Shown here one piece after another: positions 2,946 to 12,245 of a DNA stretch of 18,724 nt (position 1 is its first letter; the number at the start of each line of letters is the position of its first letter). The notes under the pieces were generated by a model. The model saw nothing but the letters and a program-made list of their open reading frames with translations. It was not told the DNA's origin and made no database searches. Source of the stretch: a virus (lineage: Duplodnaviria > Heunggongvirae > Uroviricota > Caudoviricetes); IMG/VR virus record IMGVR_UViG_2734482772_000011, positions 1 through 18,724 of that record. One strand, 5' to 3'. Made by a program: the position numbers and the translations under genes.

Positions 2946-3021
2946 TGGTGCTGGTTAACGGACTTGAACCGCTACCCATTCGCTTACAAGGCGACTGCTC
3001 TACCATTGGAGCTAAACCAGC
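2946..3021 (-). tRNA. tRNA-Thr (anticodon UGU), CCA encoded
   Basis: Hand-folded: acceptor GCTGGTT/AACCAGC (7 perfect bp), D-stem GCTC/GAGC, anticodon loop CTTGTAA, T-arm AGCGG-TTCAAGT-CCGTT, discriminator A, 3' CCA; 76 nt. Confidence 0.7.
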
Positions 3022-3026
3022 ATGTT

Positions 3027-3101
3027 TGGCGGGACAGCGTGGGCTCGAACCACGATAAGAAGGTTAACAGCCTTCCGTAATGACCTTTATACGACTGACC
3101 C
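3027..3101 (-). tRNA. tRNA-Asn-like (anticodon GUU), CCA encoded; slightly atypical
   Basis: Hand-folded: T-arm CGTGG-TTCGAGC-CCACG, anticodon stem GAAGG/CCTTC with loop CTGTTAA (same loop as E. coli tRNA-Asn by recall), acceptor GGGTCAG/CTGTCCC with one T:T mismatch, short D-stem; 75 nt. Confidence 0.55.
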
Positions 3102-4343: not shown

Positions 4344-4951
4344 GCAGCCTCACTTCTGCTGTTTCGCAGTTTTTTAAGTTTCTGTTGATACTCCGCCTTG
4401 ATGGCCCTGCACTCTTCGACAGTCCAGCGATGGCGGTTATGGTTTGATTCGATTTCGTCTACTGCTTCCTGCCCGATGCGGTTAATCAGTTCGACGCGAT
4501 ACGGAACGAGATTTCCGCTTTTATGTTGGTTGCACACCACGCATTGCTTGTGAATATTGCGTTCATCAAATCGGAGTTGAGGCGCCGCAGCAGTTGTCCG
4601 GTAATGCCCGGCATCCCACTGAGCAGACGTGAGCGTTCCGCACGAGATACATGGTAAGTCGCGGTCTCTTTCTCTGATGAAGGCGTTTACGGCTTGTTGG
4701 GCTTGTTTAATCCAGTAACTGCGGGGCTTTAAGGCGAGTTTTCGAATCTTAAGTTTATCTTTCTGTTTCTGCTCCTCTCGTCGTCGTTTCTTCTCTGCTG
4801 CCTTTTCCGCTTTTTCGCGTTCTTTGCTTCGTCGTTCGAGTGCTATCTTGGTTCCACACTCTGGAGAGCACCACCACTGATTGGCGAATGCAGGGTGAAA
4901 CCATTCCCGACATTCATCGTTTTTACATCGTCTTCGCGCTGGTTTAGCCAT
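4340..4951 (-). CDS. ninG: NinG (Rap) recombination protein
   Basis: Track ORF 203 aa; Cys-rich N-terminus ([12 protein letters not shown]...WWCSPECG) and lysine/glutamate-rich stretch typical of lambda NinG by recall. Confidence 0.9.
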
Positions 4952-5004: not shown

Positions 5005-5511
5005 TTATGGTCTGCCATGGTTTTCATGAAAACCCAGTTCTTTTTCTGCCCTCTTCCTTTCTGCAATAGCGTCAATGATGCTAGCAAATATTCCAAGATA
5101 TTTGGTGCGCCCATCTACGCATATATTCGCAATCCACTTGCATCTCTCTTTATTGAAATACACTCCAGTCACTCCTGACGAATTGGTTATTTTTCTCTTT
5201 TGGTTCTGTGCATTCTGTTGGTGTGTAACCAATCGAAGATTAGATAGCCTATTATCTGACCTTACTCCATTTATATGATCAATTTTATACCCTAATGGAA
5301 TCTCACCATTATTTATCATCCATATAACGTGGTGAGCATAAGTAATTACACCATCGATAGTTAACATCCTATAACCATCACTCCTAATGTAACCAGCAAC
5401 ACTGCCAACCTTAACATTATTAGAAGGAGACACTTTCCATCTAAGTACACCTAAAACATCATCATATGATAATTTATTTCTTAATTCGTCTATGTTGCTT
5501 ATATTTCTCAT
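5005..5511 (-). CDS. HNH homing endonuclease with AP2-like DNA-binding domain
   Basis: Track ORF 168 aa; HNH_3-like segment (YKIDHINGVRSDNRLSNLRLVTHQQN) followed by AP2-like segment (SGVTGVYFNKERCKWIANICVDGRTKYLGIF); AT-rich by eye relative to flanking nin genes. Confidence 0.8.
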   Translation of the reverse strand: MRNISNIDELRNKLSYDDVLGVLRWKVSPSNNVKVGSVAGYIRSDGYRMLTIDGVITYAHHVIWMINNGEIPLGYKIDHINGVRSDNRLSNLRLVTHQQNAQNQKRKITNSSGVTGVYFNKERCKWIANICVDGRTKYLGIFASIIDAIAERKRAEKELGFHENHGRP

Positions 5512-5653
5512 TATGTTCCACCATATTTAAGCATTCATATATACAACGCTCACACACATGAACTTCCAGCACATGCAGCTTCTGACCGCAGTTAGCGCAC
5601 GTTAAAGCTCGCTCGACACTTCCTTGTTCGTAACTTCGATTTTGGTCAATCAC
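5474..5653 (-). CDS. ninF: NinF-like ORF with altered C-terminus (remnant at the junction with the HNH insert)
   Basis: Hand-translated, not in track: GTG at 5653-5651 overlaps ninE stop (GTGA); reads [59 protein letters not shown]; core [24 protein letters not shown] matches lambda NinF by recall; 3' end overlaps the HNH start by 38 nt. Confidence 0.45.
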
Positions 5654-5832
5654 CTTGTTTTCCTCGCACGTTCTCTAAGCCACCGGATATCCCACAGGTG
5701 AGCCGTGTAGTTGAAGGTTTTTACGTCAGATTCTTTTGGGATTGGCTTGCGTTTATTTCTGGAGCGTTTCGTTGGAAGGTATTTGCAGTTTTCGCAGATT
5801 ATGTCGGTGATACTTCGTCGCTGTCTCGCCAC
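5650..5832 (-). CDS. ninE: NinE
   Basis: Track ORF 60 aa, [23 protein letters not shown]... matches lambda NinE by recall. Confidence 0.9.
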
Positions 5833-5972
5833 ACGTCCTCCTTTTCCTGCGGTAGTGGTAACACCCCTGTTGGTGTTCTTTCACATCGGAGACACCATCG
5901 ATTCCAGTAAGGTTGATTTGGTCGGAAGCGGTTATCTTCTTTGCATTCACCGCACCGATAACATCGCATCAT
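5799..5972 (-). CDS. ninD: NinD (small Cys-rich protein)
   Basis: Within track ORF 5799..6032; start taken at [11 protein letters not shown] (ATG 5972-5970) which overlaps ninB stop as ATGA; Cys-x2-Cys pairs. Confidence 0.7.
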
Positions 5973-6485: not shown

Positions 6486-7922
6486 TCAGAATCCTCCTTT
6501 CTTCTTGGACTGCGGTTCCTCGCGTTCACGTCGGCGCATTTCAGCAGACTGTTGGTCTGTGTCATAAATAGCGCCATTTGCCTGAATGCAATACACCGTG
6601 CCGGTATTGCCATGACGATTGAGACGAAGGATTAGTTCAGTTTCACCAGGTGGAACACTGTCATCAAAAGCGCCTTCACGATGGATCCCGACCCAATAAT
6701 CGCAATCCTGTTCAATCTGCCCTGTATCTCGTGAGTCACTTGGTAATGGGCGTTTATTGGTTCTGCTTTCCAGTGCGCGGTTAAGCTGCGTCAGAAGCAC
6801 AACAACGCAATCAAGCTCTTTGGCAAGGTTCTTCAGTCCTTTGGTGATCATGCCGTAAGCAAGGTCGTTGCGATCGGCCTTCTCAGCGGTCATTAGTGTC
6901 AGGTAATCGACCAGAATCATGCCAACACATCCTTTTTCTCGCTTGATTCGACGGCTTTCGCTGACGATTTGAGCCAGAGATAATCCCGGCGTGTCGTCGA
7001 TGTAAAGCAGGTCTATTTCACTCAAGCGATTGGCTGTTTCTATCGCCCTGTTGAAGTCACCATCGTAATCACCCTGATAGCCGTCATCGGCGTCATTTGT
7101 CGCCGGAAGGTAAAAAATATTCGGGTTAACACCAGACTTCTGCCCTACCAGTTTTTCCAGTATCTGATCACCTGGCATTTCAAGGCTGAACATCAATGCG
7201 GGCTTTTTCTCATGCACTGCGCAATTGATTGCCATCTGGCTGTATAGCGTCGTTTTCCCCATCTTAGGGCGAGCGCCAATGACAAACAGAGAGCCTTTCA
7301 CCAGACCTTTCGGTGACAGCATCCTGTCCAGCGATGGGATCCCTGTGCTCATTCCCCGTTGTTCGCCTGACGGGTCAAATCGCTTCTCAAGGTCGCTAAC
7401 CCAGTCTTCCATGACCTCACCAAATGAGCGAAGGCCGCGACGCGATCCGGTTTTTGCATGGTCTGTCAGTTGCGTGAAAATCGACTGAATAGCTTCGTAC
7501 TTCTGCGTTGCAGTCATTCCGTTGCGGGAATAGAGCAATTCCGTCGCTTCAGTCATGCGGTTGATGGCGTAGCGTTCCATTGCGGTTTCGCGAACCTGCA
7601 TTGCATAAGCAACGATGTTTGCTGCGCTTGGCGTGTTCTTTGCGATCTCAGCGATATAAGCAAAACCGCCAACAGACGCCGTTAACGATTTACGCTCCAG
7701 TTCATCGAAAAGCGTCAGGCCATCTACTGGCTTTTGCTCACGGTGCATTCTGGTTATTTCTTCGAAAATGATTTTGTGTGGCCGGCTGTAAAATGAATCA
7801 GGCTTCAGCATCGCCAGAACCTTCTGGACGCGCTCACTGCTGTCATCATCCAGAAGCAATCCACCAATCACCGCCTGCTCTGCCTCGATGCTATGGGGCG
7901 GCGCATAAAAATTATCGGTCAT
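6486..7922 (-). CDS. replicative DNA helicase (DnaB family, P22 gene 12 type)
   Basis: Track ORF; Walker A GARPKMGKT, DnaB-like N-terminal segment SIEAEQAVIGGLLLD; ATG at 7922-7920 with SD GAGGGTG preferred over track GTG at 7937. Confidence 0.9.
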   Translation of the reverse strand: MTDNFYAPPHSIEAEQAVIGGLLLDDDSSERVQKVLAMLKPDSFYSRPHKIIFEEITRMHREQKPVDGLTLFDELERKSLTASVGGFAYIAEIAKNTPSAANIVAYAMQVRETAMERYAINRMTEATELLYSRNGMTATQKYEAIQSIFTQLTDHAKTGSRRGLRSFGEVMEDWVSDLEKRFDPSGEQRGMSTGIPSLDRMLSPKGLVKGSLFVIGARPKMGKTTLYSQMAINCAVHEKKPALMFSLEMPGDQILEKLVGQKSGVNPNIFYLPATNDADDGYQGDYDGDFNRAIETANRLSEIDLLYIDDTPGLSLAQIVSESRRIKREKGCVGMILVDYLTLMTAEKADRNDLAYGMITKGLKNLAKELDCVVVLLTQLNRALESRTNKRPLPSDSRDTGQIEQDCDYWVGIHREGAFDDSVPPGETELILRLNRHGNTGTVYCIQANGAIYDTDQQSAEMRRREREEPQSKKKGGF

Positions 7923-8811
7923 CGTGTTCACCCTCACGAACTTTCAGGTAGGTATTATCGTTAAGCAGGAAATCAAATCCCTTTTTGTGCCAGACAGTTC
8001 CGCGTTGATGGTTTGGACGCTCTTCGAACATCCATCGGCAATTTTCGCCTACGTAGCTCAAATAATTTCTCCAGTCCTGCATCGTGAACCCATGCCCGTC
8101 AAGCTGGCGGGTTATCACTCCGGCTTTGCGCCAGAACGTTCGGATCTGGTTTTTACGCTTGTCATTCAGTGCGCGGATTCTTGGAGCTTCAGGAAGGATT
8201 TCGTGGTAAGCATCGACAACATCCTGACAGCTGACGGAAGGTTTTTTCTTGTCAGACTTTTTGTCTGCTGTGGCACTCTCTAATACGTCAGTATTAGAGA
8301 TAATATTATTATATTCTTTATCTGTGGTAATTTGCTGGTAATCTGCTGGTACAGCATTGCTTACAGGCATTGGTATTGCTGGCTTTGAGGTGGTAATTTG
8401 CTGGTAATCTGCTGGTACAAAATTTGACTGATAATCGTCATATTTCTCTACTGAGAAAACTGAGAATTTACCGTGTGAAACCCAGTCAATCATGCCGAGT
8501 TTTTTGAACTTTCTAAGCAGGTACTGAACGCGATCTGGTTTGAGTCCTGTTTCAAACGCCAGAGAGTTTCTACCGCCAAGTAGCTTCCCTCTGCCTACCA
8601 GAATTTCTCCTGCGTCAGTCATTACATACTCAGGCGTATGCTTTGCTTTGAGGATTAAGTGAACCCACAGATGCGCTGCTTCTGCATCCTTGTAAAACGG
8701 CACATCCATAATTTTACGGTGCAGCAAGGCATACCCCTTACCGCTGCTTTGATGCGGTTGTTGTAGCCTTCTGGCCTCTCTGGCTTCGGCTAGATTAGAT
8801 ATGTTACTCAT
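7912..8811 (-). CDS. replication initiation protein (O-like)
   Basis: Track ORF 299 aa directly upstream of the helicase, downstream of cII; contains tandem peptide repeat [10 protein letters not shown] encoded by the iteron array, as in lambda O. Confidence 0.75.
8324..8419. repeat. origin-like iteron array inside the O-like gene, flanked by an AT-rich tract (8281-8320)
   Basis: Exact 30-bp direct repeat GTGGTAATTTGCTGGTAATCTGCTGGTACA at 8324-8353 and 8390-8419; each holds two TGCTGGTA sub-repeats 11 bp apart. Confidence 0.6.
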
Positions 8812-8982: not shown

Positions 8983-9279
8983 TCAGAATTGCATATCAAT
9001 TTGCTTAGAGTCCCCGGCGGCCACCGGGGATTTTTTCTTTGTGATTCCATCAAGCGCATACTTAAAAGCCCTACTAATCGGACTGATGTCTGATGCCATT
9101 CCGAAAGCACACAAGACTGAAGCAATAAATCTCCAGTCCGTTCTGCTTATCTTCGATTCATGACAGCCAATCATCTTTGCCAGACCGCGCTGAGTAAGCG
9201 TTGACAGGTTGATAAGTAAATCTGTTTCTGCGCGATCAACGTCGCGCTGTGATAGTTTGCTGTAACTTGTTCGTTCCAT
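8983..9279 (-). CDS. cII: CII-like transcriptional activator
   Basis: Track ORF 98 aa; HTH region and C-terminus [18 protein letters not shown] resembling lambda CII (KKRPAATERSEQIQMEF) by recall; position between cro and O. Confidence 0.75.
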
Positions 9280-9420: not shown

Positions 9421-9636
9421 TTAAGCGGCTTTGTGTTCCGGCGGGAACACGTCATCAAGACTTACTTTTGCGCCTAACTTATTTAGGCACGCAACAAGAG
9501 CACGGCATGTTTTAAGGTCTGGGAAGCGACGACCAGATTCCCAATGTCCGATAGCTCCCTGTGTGCATCCAACTGCCTTAGCAAGTGTTGTTTGAGAGAT
9601 ATTCAGTGACTCTCGATATTTTCGTAGGTTGCTCAT
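9421..9636 (-). CDS. cro: Cro-like repressor (HTH_XRE)
   Basis: Track ORF; start at MSNLRKYRESL (ATG 9636-9634) with SD GGAGG 5 nt upstream; HTH ISQTTLAKAVGCTQGAIGHWESG; divergent from cI. Confidence 0.75.
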   Translation of the reverse strand: MSNLRKYRESLNISQTTLAKAVGCTQGAIGHWESGRRFPDLKTCRALVACLNKLGAKVSLDDVFPPEHKAA

Positions 9637-9752
9637 ATGCCCTCCATAGTAACCTCGAATAAAAAATACAATATGTACTTTCCAAATACAAGCAAAAATA
9701 CACATTGTGCATGGATGGTTCCAGTACAGAGCGTAATAATAAGGACATGAAA
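9637..9752. promoter_or_regulatory. OR region (divergent PR/PRM with operator sites)
   Basis: Intergenic between divergent cro and cI; near-palindromic sites TACAATATGTAC (9667-9678) and TACACATTGTGC (9699-9710); the first recurs near pL. Confidence 0.6.
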
Positions 9753-10406
9753 ATGAAATGGTATGAACTGGCTAGATCCAGAATGAAAGAGCTCGGCATA
9801 ACTCAAGAGAAGTTAGCCGAAGAGCTAGGTATGACGCAGGGTGGGATTGGACACTGGTTGCGCGGATCTCGTCATCCATCTCTTAGTGATATTGGTGTGG
9901 TGTTTAAATACCTTGGTATTGATAACATATCATTCAACCACGACGGGACATTTTCACCTGTTGGCGAATACTCATCGGCCCCAGTTAAAAAACAATATGA
10001 GTACCCTGTATTTTCTCATGTTCAGGCTGGGATGTTCTCTCCAGAACTCAGAACCTTTACCAAAGGCGATGCGGAGAGATTGGTAAGCACAACCAAAAAA
10101 GCCAGTGACTCTGCATTCTGGCTTGAGGTTGAAGGTAACTCAATGACCGCACCAACAGGTTCCAAACCCAGTTTTCCTGACGGGATGTTAATTCTGGTTG
10201 ACCCTGAGCAAGCTGTTGAGCCCGGCGATTTCTGCATAGCCAGACTTGGTGGTGATGAATTTACCTTCAAGAAACTGATCAGGGATAGCGGTCAGGTGTT
10301 TTTACAACCACTAAACCCACAGTACCCAATGATCCCATGCAATGAGAGTTGTTCCGTTGTGGGGAAAGTTATCGCCAGCCAGTGGCCTGAAGAGACGTTT
10401 GGGTGA
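9753..10406 (+). CDS. cI: CI repressor (HTH + LexA/S24-like autopeptidase)
   Basis: Track ORF; start at ATG 9753 (SD AAGGA 7 nt upstream); N-terminal HTH ([20 protein letters not shown]), C-terminal S24 motifs (GNSM ... FKKL). Confidence 0.9.
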
Positions 10407-10472
10407 TATATGTGAAATGCATATATTGATATAAATGCAGCAATATCAAATAGTTAAAAGGTTATATTTTTA

Positions 10473-10853
10473 ATGAATGATCTTGATAAGAAAAAGTACG
10501 ACCAAGTTATTGATTCTGTGAACTTCGCCCTTAGATCGTTGTCAGAGTTATTCGAAGCCCATGGAATGCATGGGATGTATGATCTAACGAATCCAAGCCT
10601 TGATGAGCTAAAATTAGTGTTTACAAGGATGAAAAACGGTGTTGACTCTATTGCTCAAAGCTTTGAGCACATGGTAGAGACAGCAAAGGATATGGATGCC
10701 GCAAGTGCAAGCATAAATGTTATGAACATCAAACAAGGATTGATGTATGCTGAATCACTATTGCTTGCTGTAGAGAAATTAGACTATGATAAATGTGTGG
10801 AAGCAAATACGCAGATAAAAACCCACGATCTTCCACCAACCCAATGGCCTTAA
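10473..10853 (+). CDS. hypothetical protein, AT-rich accessory gene in the rexA position
   Basis: Track ORF 126 aa co-oriented with and downstream of cI; A/T-rich codons by eye; acidic, no obvious TM segment; no family recognised. Confidence 0.6.
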   Translation: MNDLDKKKYDQVIDSVNFALRSLSELFEAHGMHGMYDLTNPSLDELKLVFTRMKNGVDSIAQSFEHMVETAKDMDAASASINVMNIKQGLMYAESLLLAVEKLDYDKCVEANTQIKTHDLPPTQWP

Positions 10854-10921
10854 TAGTAAATCAAGATTTCATATAGTCTATTTGAACTAGGCTAGTACCA
10901 TAAAATAAACCGAGGAAACGC

Positions 10922-11023
10922 AATGAAAACCATGTCTACTCTGCACAAAGATGCAATGACCCTGAGATCTCTCATTAACGAGATTCTGGCTCGCTCGTCA
11001 GCACACACCAAAAAAGCCGCATA
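10922..11023 (+). CDS. small peptide ORF (33 aa)
   Basis: Hand-translated: MKTMSTLHKDAMTLRSLINEILARSSAHTKKAA; SD GAGG 7 nt upstream; followed 11 nt later by an intrinsic terminator. Confidence 0.35.
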
Positions 11024-11034
11024 ATGCCTACATA

Positions 11035-11060
11035 ACCCGGCCTCAGCGCCGGGTTTTCTT
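11035..11060 (+). terminator. intrinsic terminator ending the cI operon (tImm analog)
   Basis: CCCGGC-CTCAGC-GCCGGG hairpin followed by TTTTCTTT. Confidence 0.7.
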
Positions 11061-11245
11061 TGCCTCACCCCCCACCTAAAGACACATAACCAAATGTATT
11101 TATTGAAAAATAAATAGATACAACTCACTAAACCACGCAATTCTGATCTCTCCTTACATCGCCGAGGCGATACACCCACGCTAAAAAACAACACTATTAA
11201 ATACAAAGTGTTATAAAAAATCACCCCATTTTAGAACAAATCGTA

Positions 11246-11274
11246 TTGACCCAATAAAGTACATATCGTACTAT
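11246..11274 (+). promoter_or_regulatory. pL-like promoter with overlapping operator
   Basis: -35 TTGACC (11246-11251), 17-nt spacer, -10 TACTAT (11269-11274); revcomp of 11259-11270 is TACGATATGTAC, 11/12 identical to OR site 9667-9678. Confidence 0.5.
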
Positions 11275-11319
11275 TTAACCGTCAGCAGGACGCTGGAAGC
11301 CAAACGGAACAGACTGGCA

Positions 11320-11366
11320 GGCTCTTTAAACAACGTCGAACTCTCGACTACGTGGCTGAAAAGCCA
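11320..11366 (+). promoter_or_regulatory. nutL (boxA + boxB)
   Basis: boxA GGCTCTTTAAACAA (11320-11333) then boxB hairpin TGGCT-GAAA-AGCCA (11353-11366), about 100 nt upstream of the N start. Confidence 0.6.
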
Positions 11367-11464
11367 GATCACCCAACCACATGAGCTGTGGGATGCAATG
11401 CCGAAGCAACCGTCTCAGGAGGAGCTTCGAGATTGCATCACCAAAGTTTATTCGGGAGGAATCT

Positions 11465-11787
11465 ATGTCCAGAAAAACAGAATTTAAAGGCACCTCAGCT
11501 TCTCGTCGTAGAGCTCGTCGCGCAAACCTGCAAAGTCAGGAGGCGATTAGCTCCGACAAGCTACACAGACCAACCCCCTCTCGAGTGGTCTTGCAATGCA
11601 AGCGCAAACCAGCAATGAGAGCAGAAGTAATAACACTGACAACGTTGACCAGAAAATATGAAGGCTCAACTTGTCTTCCAAATGTAGCTCTTTACGCGGC
11701 AGGCTACAGGAAATCAAAACAACTGACAGCAAGGTGACTTGTGTTGGTCGCCAGAAAATAAAATTAGGCAGCAAACCACTTATTTGA
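11465..11787 (+). pseudogene. N: N-like antiterminator interrupted by an apparent 1-bp deletion (or sequencing error)
   Basis: ATG 11465 (SD GGAGG) opens frame with arginine-rich motif TSASRRRARRANLQ and stops at TGA 11735-11737; the conserved N C-terminus VTCVGRQKIKLGSKPLI is in the -1 frame, ending at 11787; adding one A to the A4 run at 11716-11719 fuses them into a 107-aa protein. Confidence 0.6.
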
Positions 11788-11795
11788 GGTGATAT

Positions 11796-12245
11796 ATGGA
11801 AGAACAAGCAAACAAGATTCTCGTAGAACTATTGCAAAAAGCCAGTAATGGAATAGACGCGGCTGTTTCATTTAGCCAGGCACAGATTCCTGATGTTATC
11901 CATCAGTTGCTGCTATGGAATATGGTTGACAGTCTGATTAAAACATTAATAGCCATTCTAACAATCCCACTGGTTTTCTGGTTTATGAAGAAGCAGTGCC
12001 AAAGAGTTGAGATAGGTAAAATCGGTAATGAAGGATATTCATGGGAGAAGGGAAATCCCAAATACAGGCCGACAATGGTTTGGGATAGCAAAGGTGATAT
12101 TGATCTTCTTATCATGCCATTGGTTGGAGTTTTGACTCTGTGGGGGATTTTTATTATTGGTGCAGTAACCAATATGACTTGGTTAAAAATTTGGCTGGCC
12201 CCAAAGCTTTACCTTATCGAATATGCAGCATCATTGGTTAAGTAA
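11796..12245 (+). CDS. hypothetical two-TM membrane protein (sieB-position accessory gene)
   Basis: Track ORF 149 aa; SD GAGGTG upstream; two hydrophobic segments (LIKTLIAILTIPLVFWFM and LLIMPLVGVLTLWGIFIIGAV); AT-rich by eye; between N and tL1-like terminator. Confidence 0.6.
   Translation: MEEQANKILVELLQKASNGIDAAVSFSQAQIPDVIHQLLLWNMVDSLIKTLIAILTIPLVFWFMKKQCQRVEIGKIGNEGYSWEKGNPKYRPTMVWDSKGDIDLLIMPLVGVLTLWGIFIIGAVTNMTWLKIWLAPKLYLIEYAASLVK

Follow-up and report, generated by a model that had tools for sequence, protein, structure and literature searches.

What occupies the interval between the repressor gene cI and the antitermination gene N, the place of the exclusion genes rexA and rexB in phage lambda, in the mosaic lambdoid Escherichia coli prophage of IMG/VR record IMGVR_UViG_2734482772_000011, and what might it do for its carrier? 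The window, that is, the whole analysed stretch of 18,724 nucleotides, represents the early region of this prophage, in an orientation opposite to that of the lambda map, and 40-50% of its length is common with HK106, HK022, Sf6 and related phages at 92-97% identity. An earlier examination of the letters alone (hereafter, the sequence-only reading) had placed here an AT-rich insert, perhaps horizontally acquired, with two unrecognised genes, and had proposed it as a possible superinfection exclusion or abortive infection module. We found that positions 10409..11033 (+ strand) form a discrete insert of 625 bp in a slot homologous to that of lambda rexAB, and very probably a genuine two-gene mobile cassette of the moron type, which encodes an acidic protein of 126 amino acids (ORF126) and a basic micro-protein of 33 amino acids (ORF33). 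With regard to function, we tentatively favour toxin-antitoxin (TA)-like addiction and/or phage exclusion; this assignment is the least certain step of the analysis, and our confidence in the account as a whole is accordingly set no higher than that for this step, somewhat short of probable.

The borders of the insert are defined by comparison with related phages. Phages 2B8, E212 and Stx2-1717, as well as many other Stx phages, match the window at 97-98% identity across cro-cI and at 94-96% across tImm-PL-N, and the blastn breakpoints against the three named phages put the left junction at 10404..10408, that is, at the cI stop codon. On the right, homology to the same phages returns where the terminator stem begins, at 11034. 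The DNA between these flanks is different in each type of relative. The slot holds a 285-aa NYN-domain protein, with weak PADLOC matches to HEC-09 and NYN, in 2B8 (L041 1335-2192) and E212 (L043), and approximately 1.3 kb in Stx2-1717 (L042), including a 173-aa hypothetical, VT2-Sap23-like protein (1709-2230) preceded by 500 bp of unannotated DNA; in lambda, rexA-rexB lie between the end of cI and an identical tImm hairpin. The GC content of the insert is 37.4%, compared to 46.1% for the window, 46.4% for cI and 47.6% for N, which places it within the lowest 0.4% of the 625-bp sliding windows of the stretch. Thus, two features of morons, namely, differing inserts between the same flanks in related phages and a base composition unlike that of the flanks, are found at this locus, and both the AT-richness and the horizontal acquisition in the rexAB position that had been proposed from the letters are borne out. 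The literature already lists the cI-N interval, with rexAB and bstA among its occupants, as a hotspot of mosaicism, and ranks the promoter that drives it among the most active of prophages in lysogens (PMC8585504).

The cI 3' end and tImm apparently serve as recombination arms for the exchange of cargo. The repressor gene (9747..10406, +; start ATG 9747 or 9753) encodes HTH_3 (PF01381, 2e-10) and Peptidase_S24 (PF00717, 1e-28) domains, as detected with Pfam; in blastn, the DNA of the C-terminal half (9996-10407) and that of lambda cI are 94% identical. The gene is itself mosaic, with a lambda-like S24 half and an N-terminal DNA-binding half that is not lambda-like; its conserved 3' half is probably the left arm. 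Two loci, L024 (~5843-5868) and L032 (~790-815), carry the final ~23 nt of cI, GGCCTGATGAGACGTTTGGGTGA, a second time, directly 5' of the cassette, and in L024 this second copy duplicates the end of the resident cI. These copies can be read as a recombination scar, such that the cassette would travel with the cI 3' end. In L033, a distant lambdoid relative, a DUF3024 protein (5357-5698, +) that matches a PADLOC phage-defence candidate (PDC-S43, E = 6e-38) is located between cI and the cassette, so that the slot there apparently holds two stacked cargo units.

The cassette is followed by a tImm-type intrinsic terminator (11034..11064, +). It consists of the hairpin AACCCGGCCTCAGCGCCGGGTT, with an 8-bp stem that includes 6 G-C pairs (11034-11041 / 11048-11055), followed by TTTTCTTTG; the hairpin and the T-tract are identical to those of lambda. 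With a predicted free energy of -15.9 kcal/mol (z = -3.9), the terminator folds better than all of 200 shuffled sequences. The strong hairpin described in the sequence-only reading is therefore real, but its attribution to the insert, as a cap, has to be given up: because homology with related phages restarts at 11034 and the hairpin is identical to that of lambda, the terminator is, by this comparison, the tImm of the phage backbone and was not brought by the insert. It is the only predicted + strand terminator between cI and N. Given that no terminator separates cI from the cassette, transcription together with cI from PRM/PRE is the natural reading, and the cassette is most likely co-transcribed with the repressor gene in the lysogen. 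The only promoter-like site 5' of ORF126 in the window, TTGATA-17-AATAGT (10426-10454), has 9 of 12 matches, a level expected by chance. Elsewhere, the cassettes are preceded by 200-470 bp of AT-rich DNA and followed by a hairpin terminator of their own.

In contexts that are unrelated, the cassette is followed by terminators with a common stem core, CCCGG...CCGGG (window 11034-11055; L003 ~4565-4600; L005 ~2940-2965; L007 ~4560-4585; L002 ~4510-4535), and the copy in a Pectobacterium prophage is followed by a nearly identical tImm-like terminator that keeps the lambda-type tail TTTTCTTTGCCTCA. This pattern is suggestive of joint movement of the cassette with a tImm-like terminator.

The 66-nt spacer between cI and ORF126 contains an AU-rich inverted repeat (10405..10428, +), predicted to fold as a 9-bp AU hairpin (-6.7 kcal/mol, z = -2.7) that is not followed by a T-tract. 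The 7-bp inverted repeat reported earlier at 10406-10426 does exist, but its standing as a meaningful signal does not hold up: 7-bp inverted repeats occur in 21% of the shuffled versions of this spacer and at 2.7 per kb of the window, and the repeat was not found 5' of the cassette in other genome contexts. It is probably fortuitous.

The larger gene, ORF126 (10473..10853, +), lies exactly where the earlier examination had put a 126-aa acidic soluble protein, and the physicochemical properties of the product agree with that description (isoelectric point (pI) 4.8, net charge -8, grand average of hydropathy (GRAVY) -0.33). An AlphaFold2 model built with a diverse alignment (predicted local distance difference test 89.9, predicted TM-score 0.82) shows four helices, at residues 3-37, 43-71, 74-101 and 105-117, packed as an up-down bundle; the predicted fold is confident but generic, and the modelled protein appears soluble. 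The family is characterised by the motifs GMxGM..L.NPS and NIKQGL..AE, by C108 and by a C-terminal P.W, and the invariant or nearly invariant columns (V16, F27, G31, G34, P41, L43, L46, A79, N85-G89, A93, E94, L96 and C108) include three clusters: the connection between helices 1 and 2 (G31, G34, P41), helix 3 (N85-I-K-Q-G-L, A93, E94, L96) and C108 in helix 4. Comparison of homologues by the Nei-Gojobori method gives nonsynonymous differences (pN) of 0.09-0.19 against synonymous differences (pS) of 0.72-1.0, indicative of purifying selection.

PHROGs v4 assigns ORF126 over its full length (residues 1-126 of 126, E = 8e-89) to phrog_16322, a family of unknown function. The family forms 23 clusters at 90% identity among 5.8 billion proteins, and an exhaustive hidden Markov model search of 1.84 billion representatives yields 18 at 50% identity; all 18 are single-domain, with full-length members of 109-134 aa, the others being short fragments. 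Several entries of 67-75 aa (P0021-P0023, P0046) belong to the family. Of these, P0023 was checked on DNA (L052 2845-3222) and proved to be an intact, full-length gene miscalled from an internal Met; the remaining entries start at that Met as well. Apart from phrog_16322, ORF126 has no informative match in PHROGs, Pfam, NCBIfam or PADLOC; the PDB sequence profile search gave no match below E = 0.1, and no informative match was obtained in PDB or BFVD. The sequence-only reading recognised neither product of the cassette, and the profile and structure searches leave that assessment in place, having returned no informative family for either.

Downstream of ORF126 lies ORF33, which encodes the micro-protein MKTMSTLHKDAMTLRSLINEILARSSAHTKKAA at 10923..11024 (+, including the stop codon) and is preceded by a GAGGA Shine-Dalgarno sequence at 10912..10916 (+), 6 nt before the ATG as read from the sequence. 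The gene, the basicity of its product (pI 10.45, GRAVY -0.26) and the good Shine-Dalgarno sequence were all noted before, and only the coordinates given then, 10922-11023, are displaced by one base. ORF33 is a real gene. Its pN of 0.25-0.40 against a pS of 0.6-1.0 (Nei-Gojobori), with saturated synonymous sites, reflects purifying selection, and the C-terminus of the micro-protein is K-[A/V]-A (KKAA, QKAA, RKAA or KKVA) in 11 of the 12 sequence lineages and EVA in the twelfth, with the codons of the last residues, including the terminal Ala, varying synonymously. The helical core follows the pattern L[HY]..A[ML].L[RK].LI..[IL]..R[AS], and phage lineages have peptides of 33-36 aa, compared with 42-53 aa in the plasmid, insertion sequence (IS)-flanked and unassigned metagenomic lineages. 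No match came from a PDB profile search or from Pfam scans of nine peptides. With respect to annotation, RefSeq/PGAP leaves ORF33 out in E. coli genomes (e.g. L001 6544-6645); the small gene is annotated in the GenBank record of Aeromonas phage AsXd-1 and by several metagenome gene callers.

The two genes are tightly linked. In the first set of loci, a small open reading frame follows the ORF126 homologue on the same strand in 36 of 36 phage, prophage and chromosomal cases, and after inclusion of four more distant lineages, the pair is present in all 12 examined, across which the larger protein ranges from 25 to 100% identity. The genes are separated by 21-84 nt, and a hairpin terminator then follows. 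The spacer between ORF126 and ORF33 is not conserved and shows no excess of folding over shuffled sequences (z = +0.4), and Rfam detects no RNA element at the cassette, the only hits in the window being two tRNAs elsewhere. The proposal of a two-gene insert is thereby strengthened, with both open reading frames being genes, paired throughout and under purifying selection. The two products are oppositely charged, and we consider it reasonably likely that they work as a physical pair; the basic helical peptide would then probably bind the acidic bundle directly.

The contexts in which the pair occurs extend far beyond the slot. Between cI and N, the cassette is combined with four different repressor N-terminal DNA-binding domains (the window, L024, L033 and L037). 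In a P22-like Pectobacterium prophage, it follows mnt, another lysogen-expressed repressor gene, in the immI region; in Aeromonas phage AsXd-1, which is HK97-like, as well as in six relatives from IMG/VR, it abuts the tail-fibre genes and is preceded by int and dinI, with AsXd-1 carrying it at its end; and in a Klebsiella prophage, it is found at the tRNA-Pro-proximal end, beside umuDC, an invertase and a tail spike. Further contigs carry it 3' of an HTH_3 gene between copies of IS1595.

In addition, the module is the sole accessory cargo of two small plasmids. The first, a 3.1-kb circle, consists of Rep3, the module and Mob_Pre; it was recovered from two independent assemblies as circular permutations of the ~3.1-kb sequence that are 100% identical (L050 and L051), and has four 21-bp iterons (direct repeats) upstream of rep (L051 1470-1589). 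The second, of 3.9 kb with a terminal k-mer overlap, comprises Rep3, the module and MobC/relaxase. The Rep proteins of these plasmids are nearest to those of small Enterobacterales plasmids (58-62% identity) and of Acinetobacter-type RepM plasmids (about 43%); a tblastn search of PLSDB with ORF126 and P0026 gave no match and found no similar module-bearing plasmid. Judged by these contexts, the cassette is an autonomous and mobile unit.

What, then, could such a unit do? What inclines us, with less than even confidence, towards TA-like addiction and/or phage exclusion is chiefly that the pair is obligate, that it occurs on minimal plasmids, and that the slot itself offers precedents. Carriage on small plasmids points to an addiction or TA-like role at least as much as to exclusion, and the slot also has a defence context, in that the PADLOC candidate PDC-S43 adjoins the cassette in one relative (L033). 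ClpX recognises C-terminal motifs such as those of ssrA (...LAA) and MuA (...RRKKAI). The K-[A/V]-A end of the micro-protein resembles these motifs and might, by this resemblance, be degron-like. Under a TA-like scheme, this end would make the peptide a protease substrate and hence the short-lived partner of the pair. On plasmids, the carrier would be stabilised by post-segregational killing; in a lysogen, an infecting phage would disturb the synthesis or turnover of the peptide, and the module would fire, resulting in abortive infection or exclusion. In its most specific form, which we consider possible but doubtful, the cassette would represent a new family of two-component systems carried by mobile elements, in which a micro-protein of 33-53 residues with a conserved, basic K-A-A degron at its C-terminus is the protease-timed antidote or sensor of a four-helix effector unrelated to known toxins, acting in abortive infection or exclusion in lysogens, from the rexAB slot, and in addiction on the 3-kb plasmids.

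Several observations weigh against this scheme. Most type II antitoxins have a DNA-binding domain, and none is recognisable in either protein. No catalytic site is obvious in the four-helix bundle, whose conserved polar residues are limited to N85, K87, Q88, E94, D104 and C108, and homology to any toxin or antitoxin is completely lacking in Pfam, NCBIfam, PADLOC and PDB. The degron would be assigned by resemblance only, and the amphipathicity of ORF33 does not exceed that of shuffled controls, 24% of which reach it. Furthermore, the family is rare: the full cassette is present in 32 of 5426 complete E. coli genomes and was not found in about 100,000 GTDB species representatives.

A generic interaction fold beside genes such as cI, mnt, dinI and umuDC would also be compatible with a regulatory function, whereby the pair, to the advantage of the element in which it resides, would modulate a host or phage circuit, with the SOS response or induction threshold, proteases and transcription factors as candidates. 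The bundle protein would act by sequestering or presenting a target, and the peptide would have a tuning role. However, a regulator specific to a switch is not expected to be the sole cargo of 3-4 kb Rep3 plasmids or to occur between IS copies. The neighbours of the cassette differ in every context, so that no common target gene is evident, and those involved in the SOS response are themselves common prophage cargo. Overall, regulation seems to us an unlikely role.

The restriction of the module to elements that establish themselves in new hosts, that is, temperate phages and mobilisable plasmids, raises the alternative of counter-defence, under which an acidic helical inhibitor with a helper peptide would block host immunity upon entry into a new cell. 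Many anti-defence proteins are, like the products of the cassette, small, acidic, all-helical and devoid of an enzyme motif. Nevertheless, the cassette belongs to a lysogen-expressed repressor operon in the window and with three other repressor types, and not to a region that is early or leading; DNA mimics differ widely in charge from the net -8 to -11 seen here; and an obligatory two-gene layout with a conserved peptide C-terminus is rare among anti-defence genes. We therefore regard counter-defence as quite improbable.

Finally, the RefSeq/PGAP annotation omits ORF33 and the absence of an Rfam match leaves room for an unlisted RNA, but it is very hard to believe that ORF126 alone is functional, with the 33-codon frame a chance occurrence in the 3' untranslated region (UTR) or with the UTR-terminator RNA as the active agent, considering that every one of the 12 lineages has an ORF33 that begins with a start codon, falls within a consistent length class and retains the conserved C-terminus, that pN remains below pS at low nucleotide identity with synonymous sites saturated, and that the spacer is neither conserved nor folded better than its shuffles.

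The remainder of the region has a recognisable lambdoid layout. To the left of cI, the complementary strand carries cro (9421-9638, -), cII (8983-9279, -) and an O-like replication gene (7912-8811, -), and two neighbouring tRNA genes lie further away (2949-3021 and 3030-3101, -; Rfam RF00005, 61.5 and 53 bits). To the right of tImm, the spacer that leads to N (11065..11464, +) contains a candidate PL promoter, TTGACC-17-TACTAT (11246-11274), and the segment 11032-11152 is 89% identical to lambda; N itself is located at 11465..11737 (+; Pfam PF25694, 1e-31). Directly 3' of N in the PL operon, there is an open reading frame of 149 aa (11796-12245, +) with two hydrophobic segments, LIKTLIAILTIPLVFWFM and LLIMPLVGVLTLWGIFIIGAV, for which PHROGs gives phrog_3054 (E = 8e-64, function unknown), whereas Pfam and PADLOC give no match; a small membrane protein at this place could be an exclusion protein of the sie type. 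An open reading frame on the opposite strand (10892-11224, -; GTG start, 110 codons) spans ORF33, the terminator and the lambda-like spacer, and is almost certainly spurious because it overlaps conserved coding and terminator sequence.

The existence of accessory cargo in the cI-N hotspot is already known, and the larger gene family has been seen, under the unnamed entry phrog_16322. The obligate micro-protein partner, its conserved C-terminus and the spread of the pair over phage families and minimal plasmids appear to be undescribed: our literature searches by accession and by topic found no description of the family, and the DefensePredictor supplements do not list it. Within ~560 bp, the cargo has two strictly associated components, travels among phage families and small plasmids, and has no counterpart in the catalogues. 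Should it turn out to serve in defence or addiction, a new effector fold would be added, together with a rare example of a functional micro-protein partner that PGAP misses; should it not, the case still illustrates how cargo in the slot is exchanged, by recombination at tImm and in the conserved 3' end of cI. In both cases, the annotation of phrog_16322 loci should include the linked micro-ORF, and the cargo is compact enough for testing within a few weeks.

Several known systems invite comparison. The closest catalogued relative is phrog_16322, of which ORF126 is a member, with PHROGs holding no record of the linked micro-protein. Among four-helix proteins, YmoB/TomB is the acidic partner of Hha; ORF126 shows no sequence or profile similarity to the YbaJ family, and kinship with the Hha-TomB (YmoA-YmoB) pair was rejected, YmoB/TomB appearing at rank 25 and a profile comparison giving a probability of 0.3%. 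An RNase toxin of the four-helix HEPN type was likewise discarded, as ORF126 lacks a conserved R-x(4-6)-H motif and has no conserved Arg/His pair. PADLOC-DB v2.0.0 gave no significant match for ORF126, ORF33 or the distant homologues, the best hit, at 0.0055 to PDC-M02A over 34 residues, coming from one homologue only.

The likeness to lambda rexAB, with which a lysogen excludes superinfecting phages such as T4 rII, is one of position. The slot, from the cI stop codon to the tImm hairpin, is homologous, and in both cases a two-gene cargo is presumably transcribed with cI. The gene products differ: RexA has 279 aa and RexB 144 aa, compared to a soluble 126-aa bundle and a hydrophilic 33-aa peptide in the present case, and neither product matches a Rex family in Pfam, PHROGs, NCBIfam or PADLOC. 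RexB has been reported as an ion channel (PMC8585504), whereas both products of the cassette are hydrophilic (GRAVY -0.33 and -0.26), with no membrane ion-channel component. The view of the sequence-only reading that the slot content is unrelated to rexAB thus agrees with the family scans, which detected no resemblance to RexA or RexB. Moreover, unlike rexAB, the cassette is not confined to the cI slot and is carried by plasmids as well. A second precedent is BstA of the Salmonella prophage BTP1, a lysogen-side accessory gene directly 3' of the repressor gene in the mosaic hotspot (PMC8585504), and the NYN-domain protein of 2B8 and E212 and the VT2-Sap23-like protein of the Stx phage are likewise cargo downstream of cI. 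BstA is an unrelated protein, encoded by a single, large gene and accompanied by a DNA-based anti-BstA element.

From type II TA and addiction systems, the cassette differs in that it shows no homology to toxin or antitoxin folds, with no toxin or antitoxin superfamily and no DNA-binding antitoxin domain detected in either partner by Pfam, NCBIfam, PADLOC or PDB searches, and in that its small partner, at 33-53 aa, is shorter than typical proteic antitoxins. What it has in common with them is the general architecture: obligatorily paired, co-oriented small genes with a terminator, a patchy distribution over prophages, IS-flanked loci and tiny plasmids, and one partner that is very small, faster-evolving and endowed with a degron-like C-terminus.

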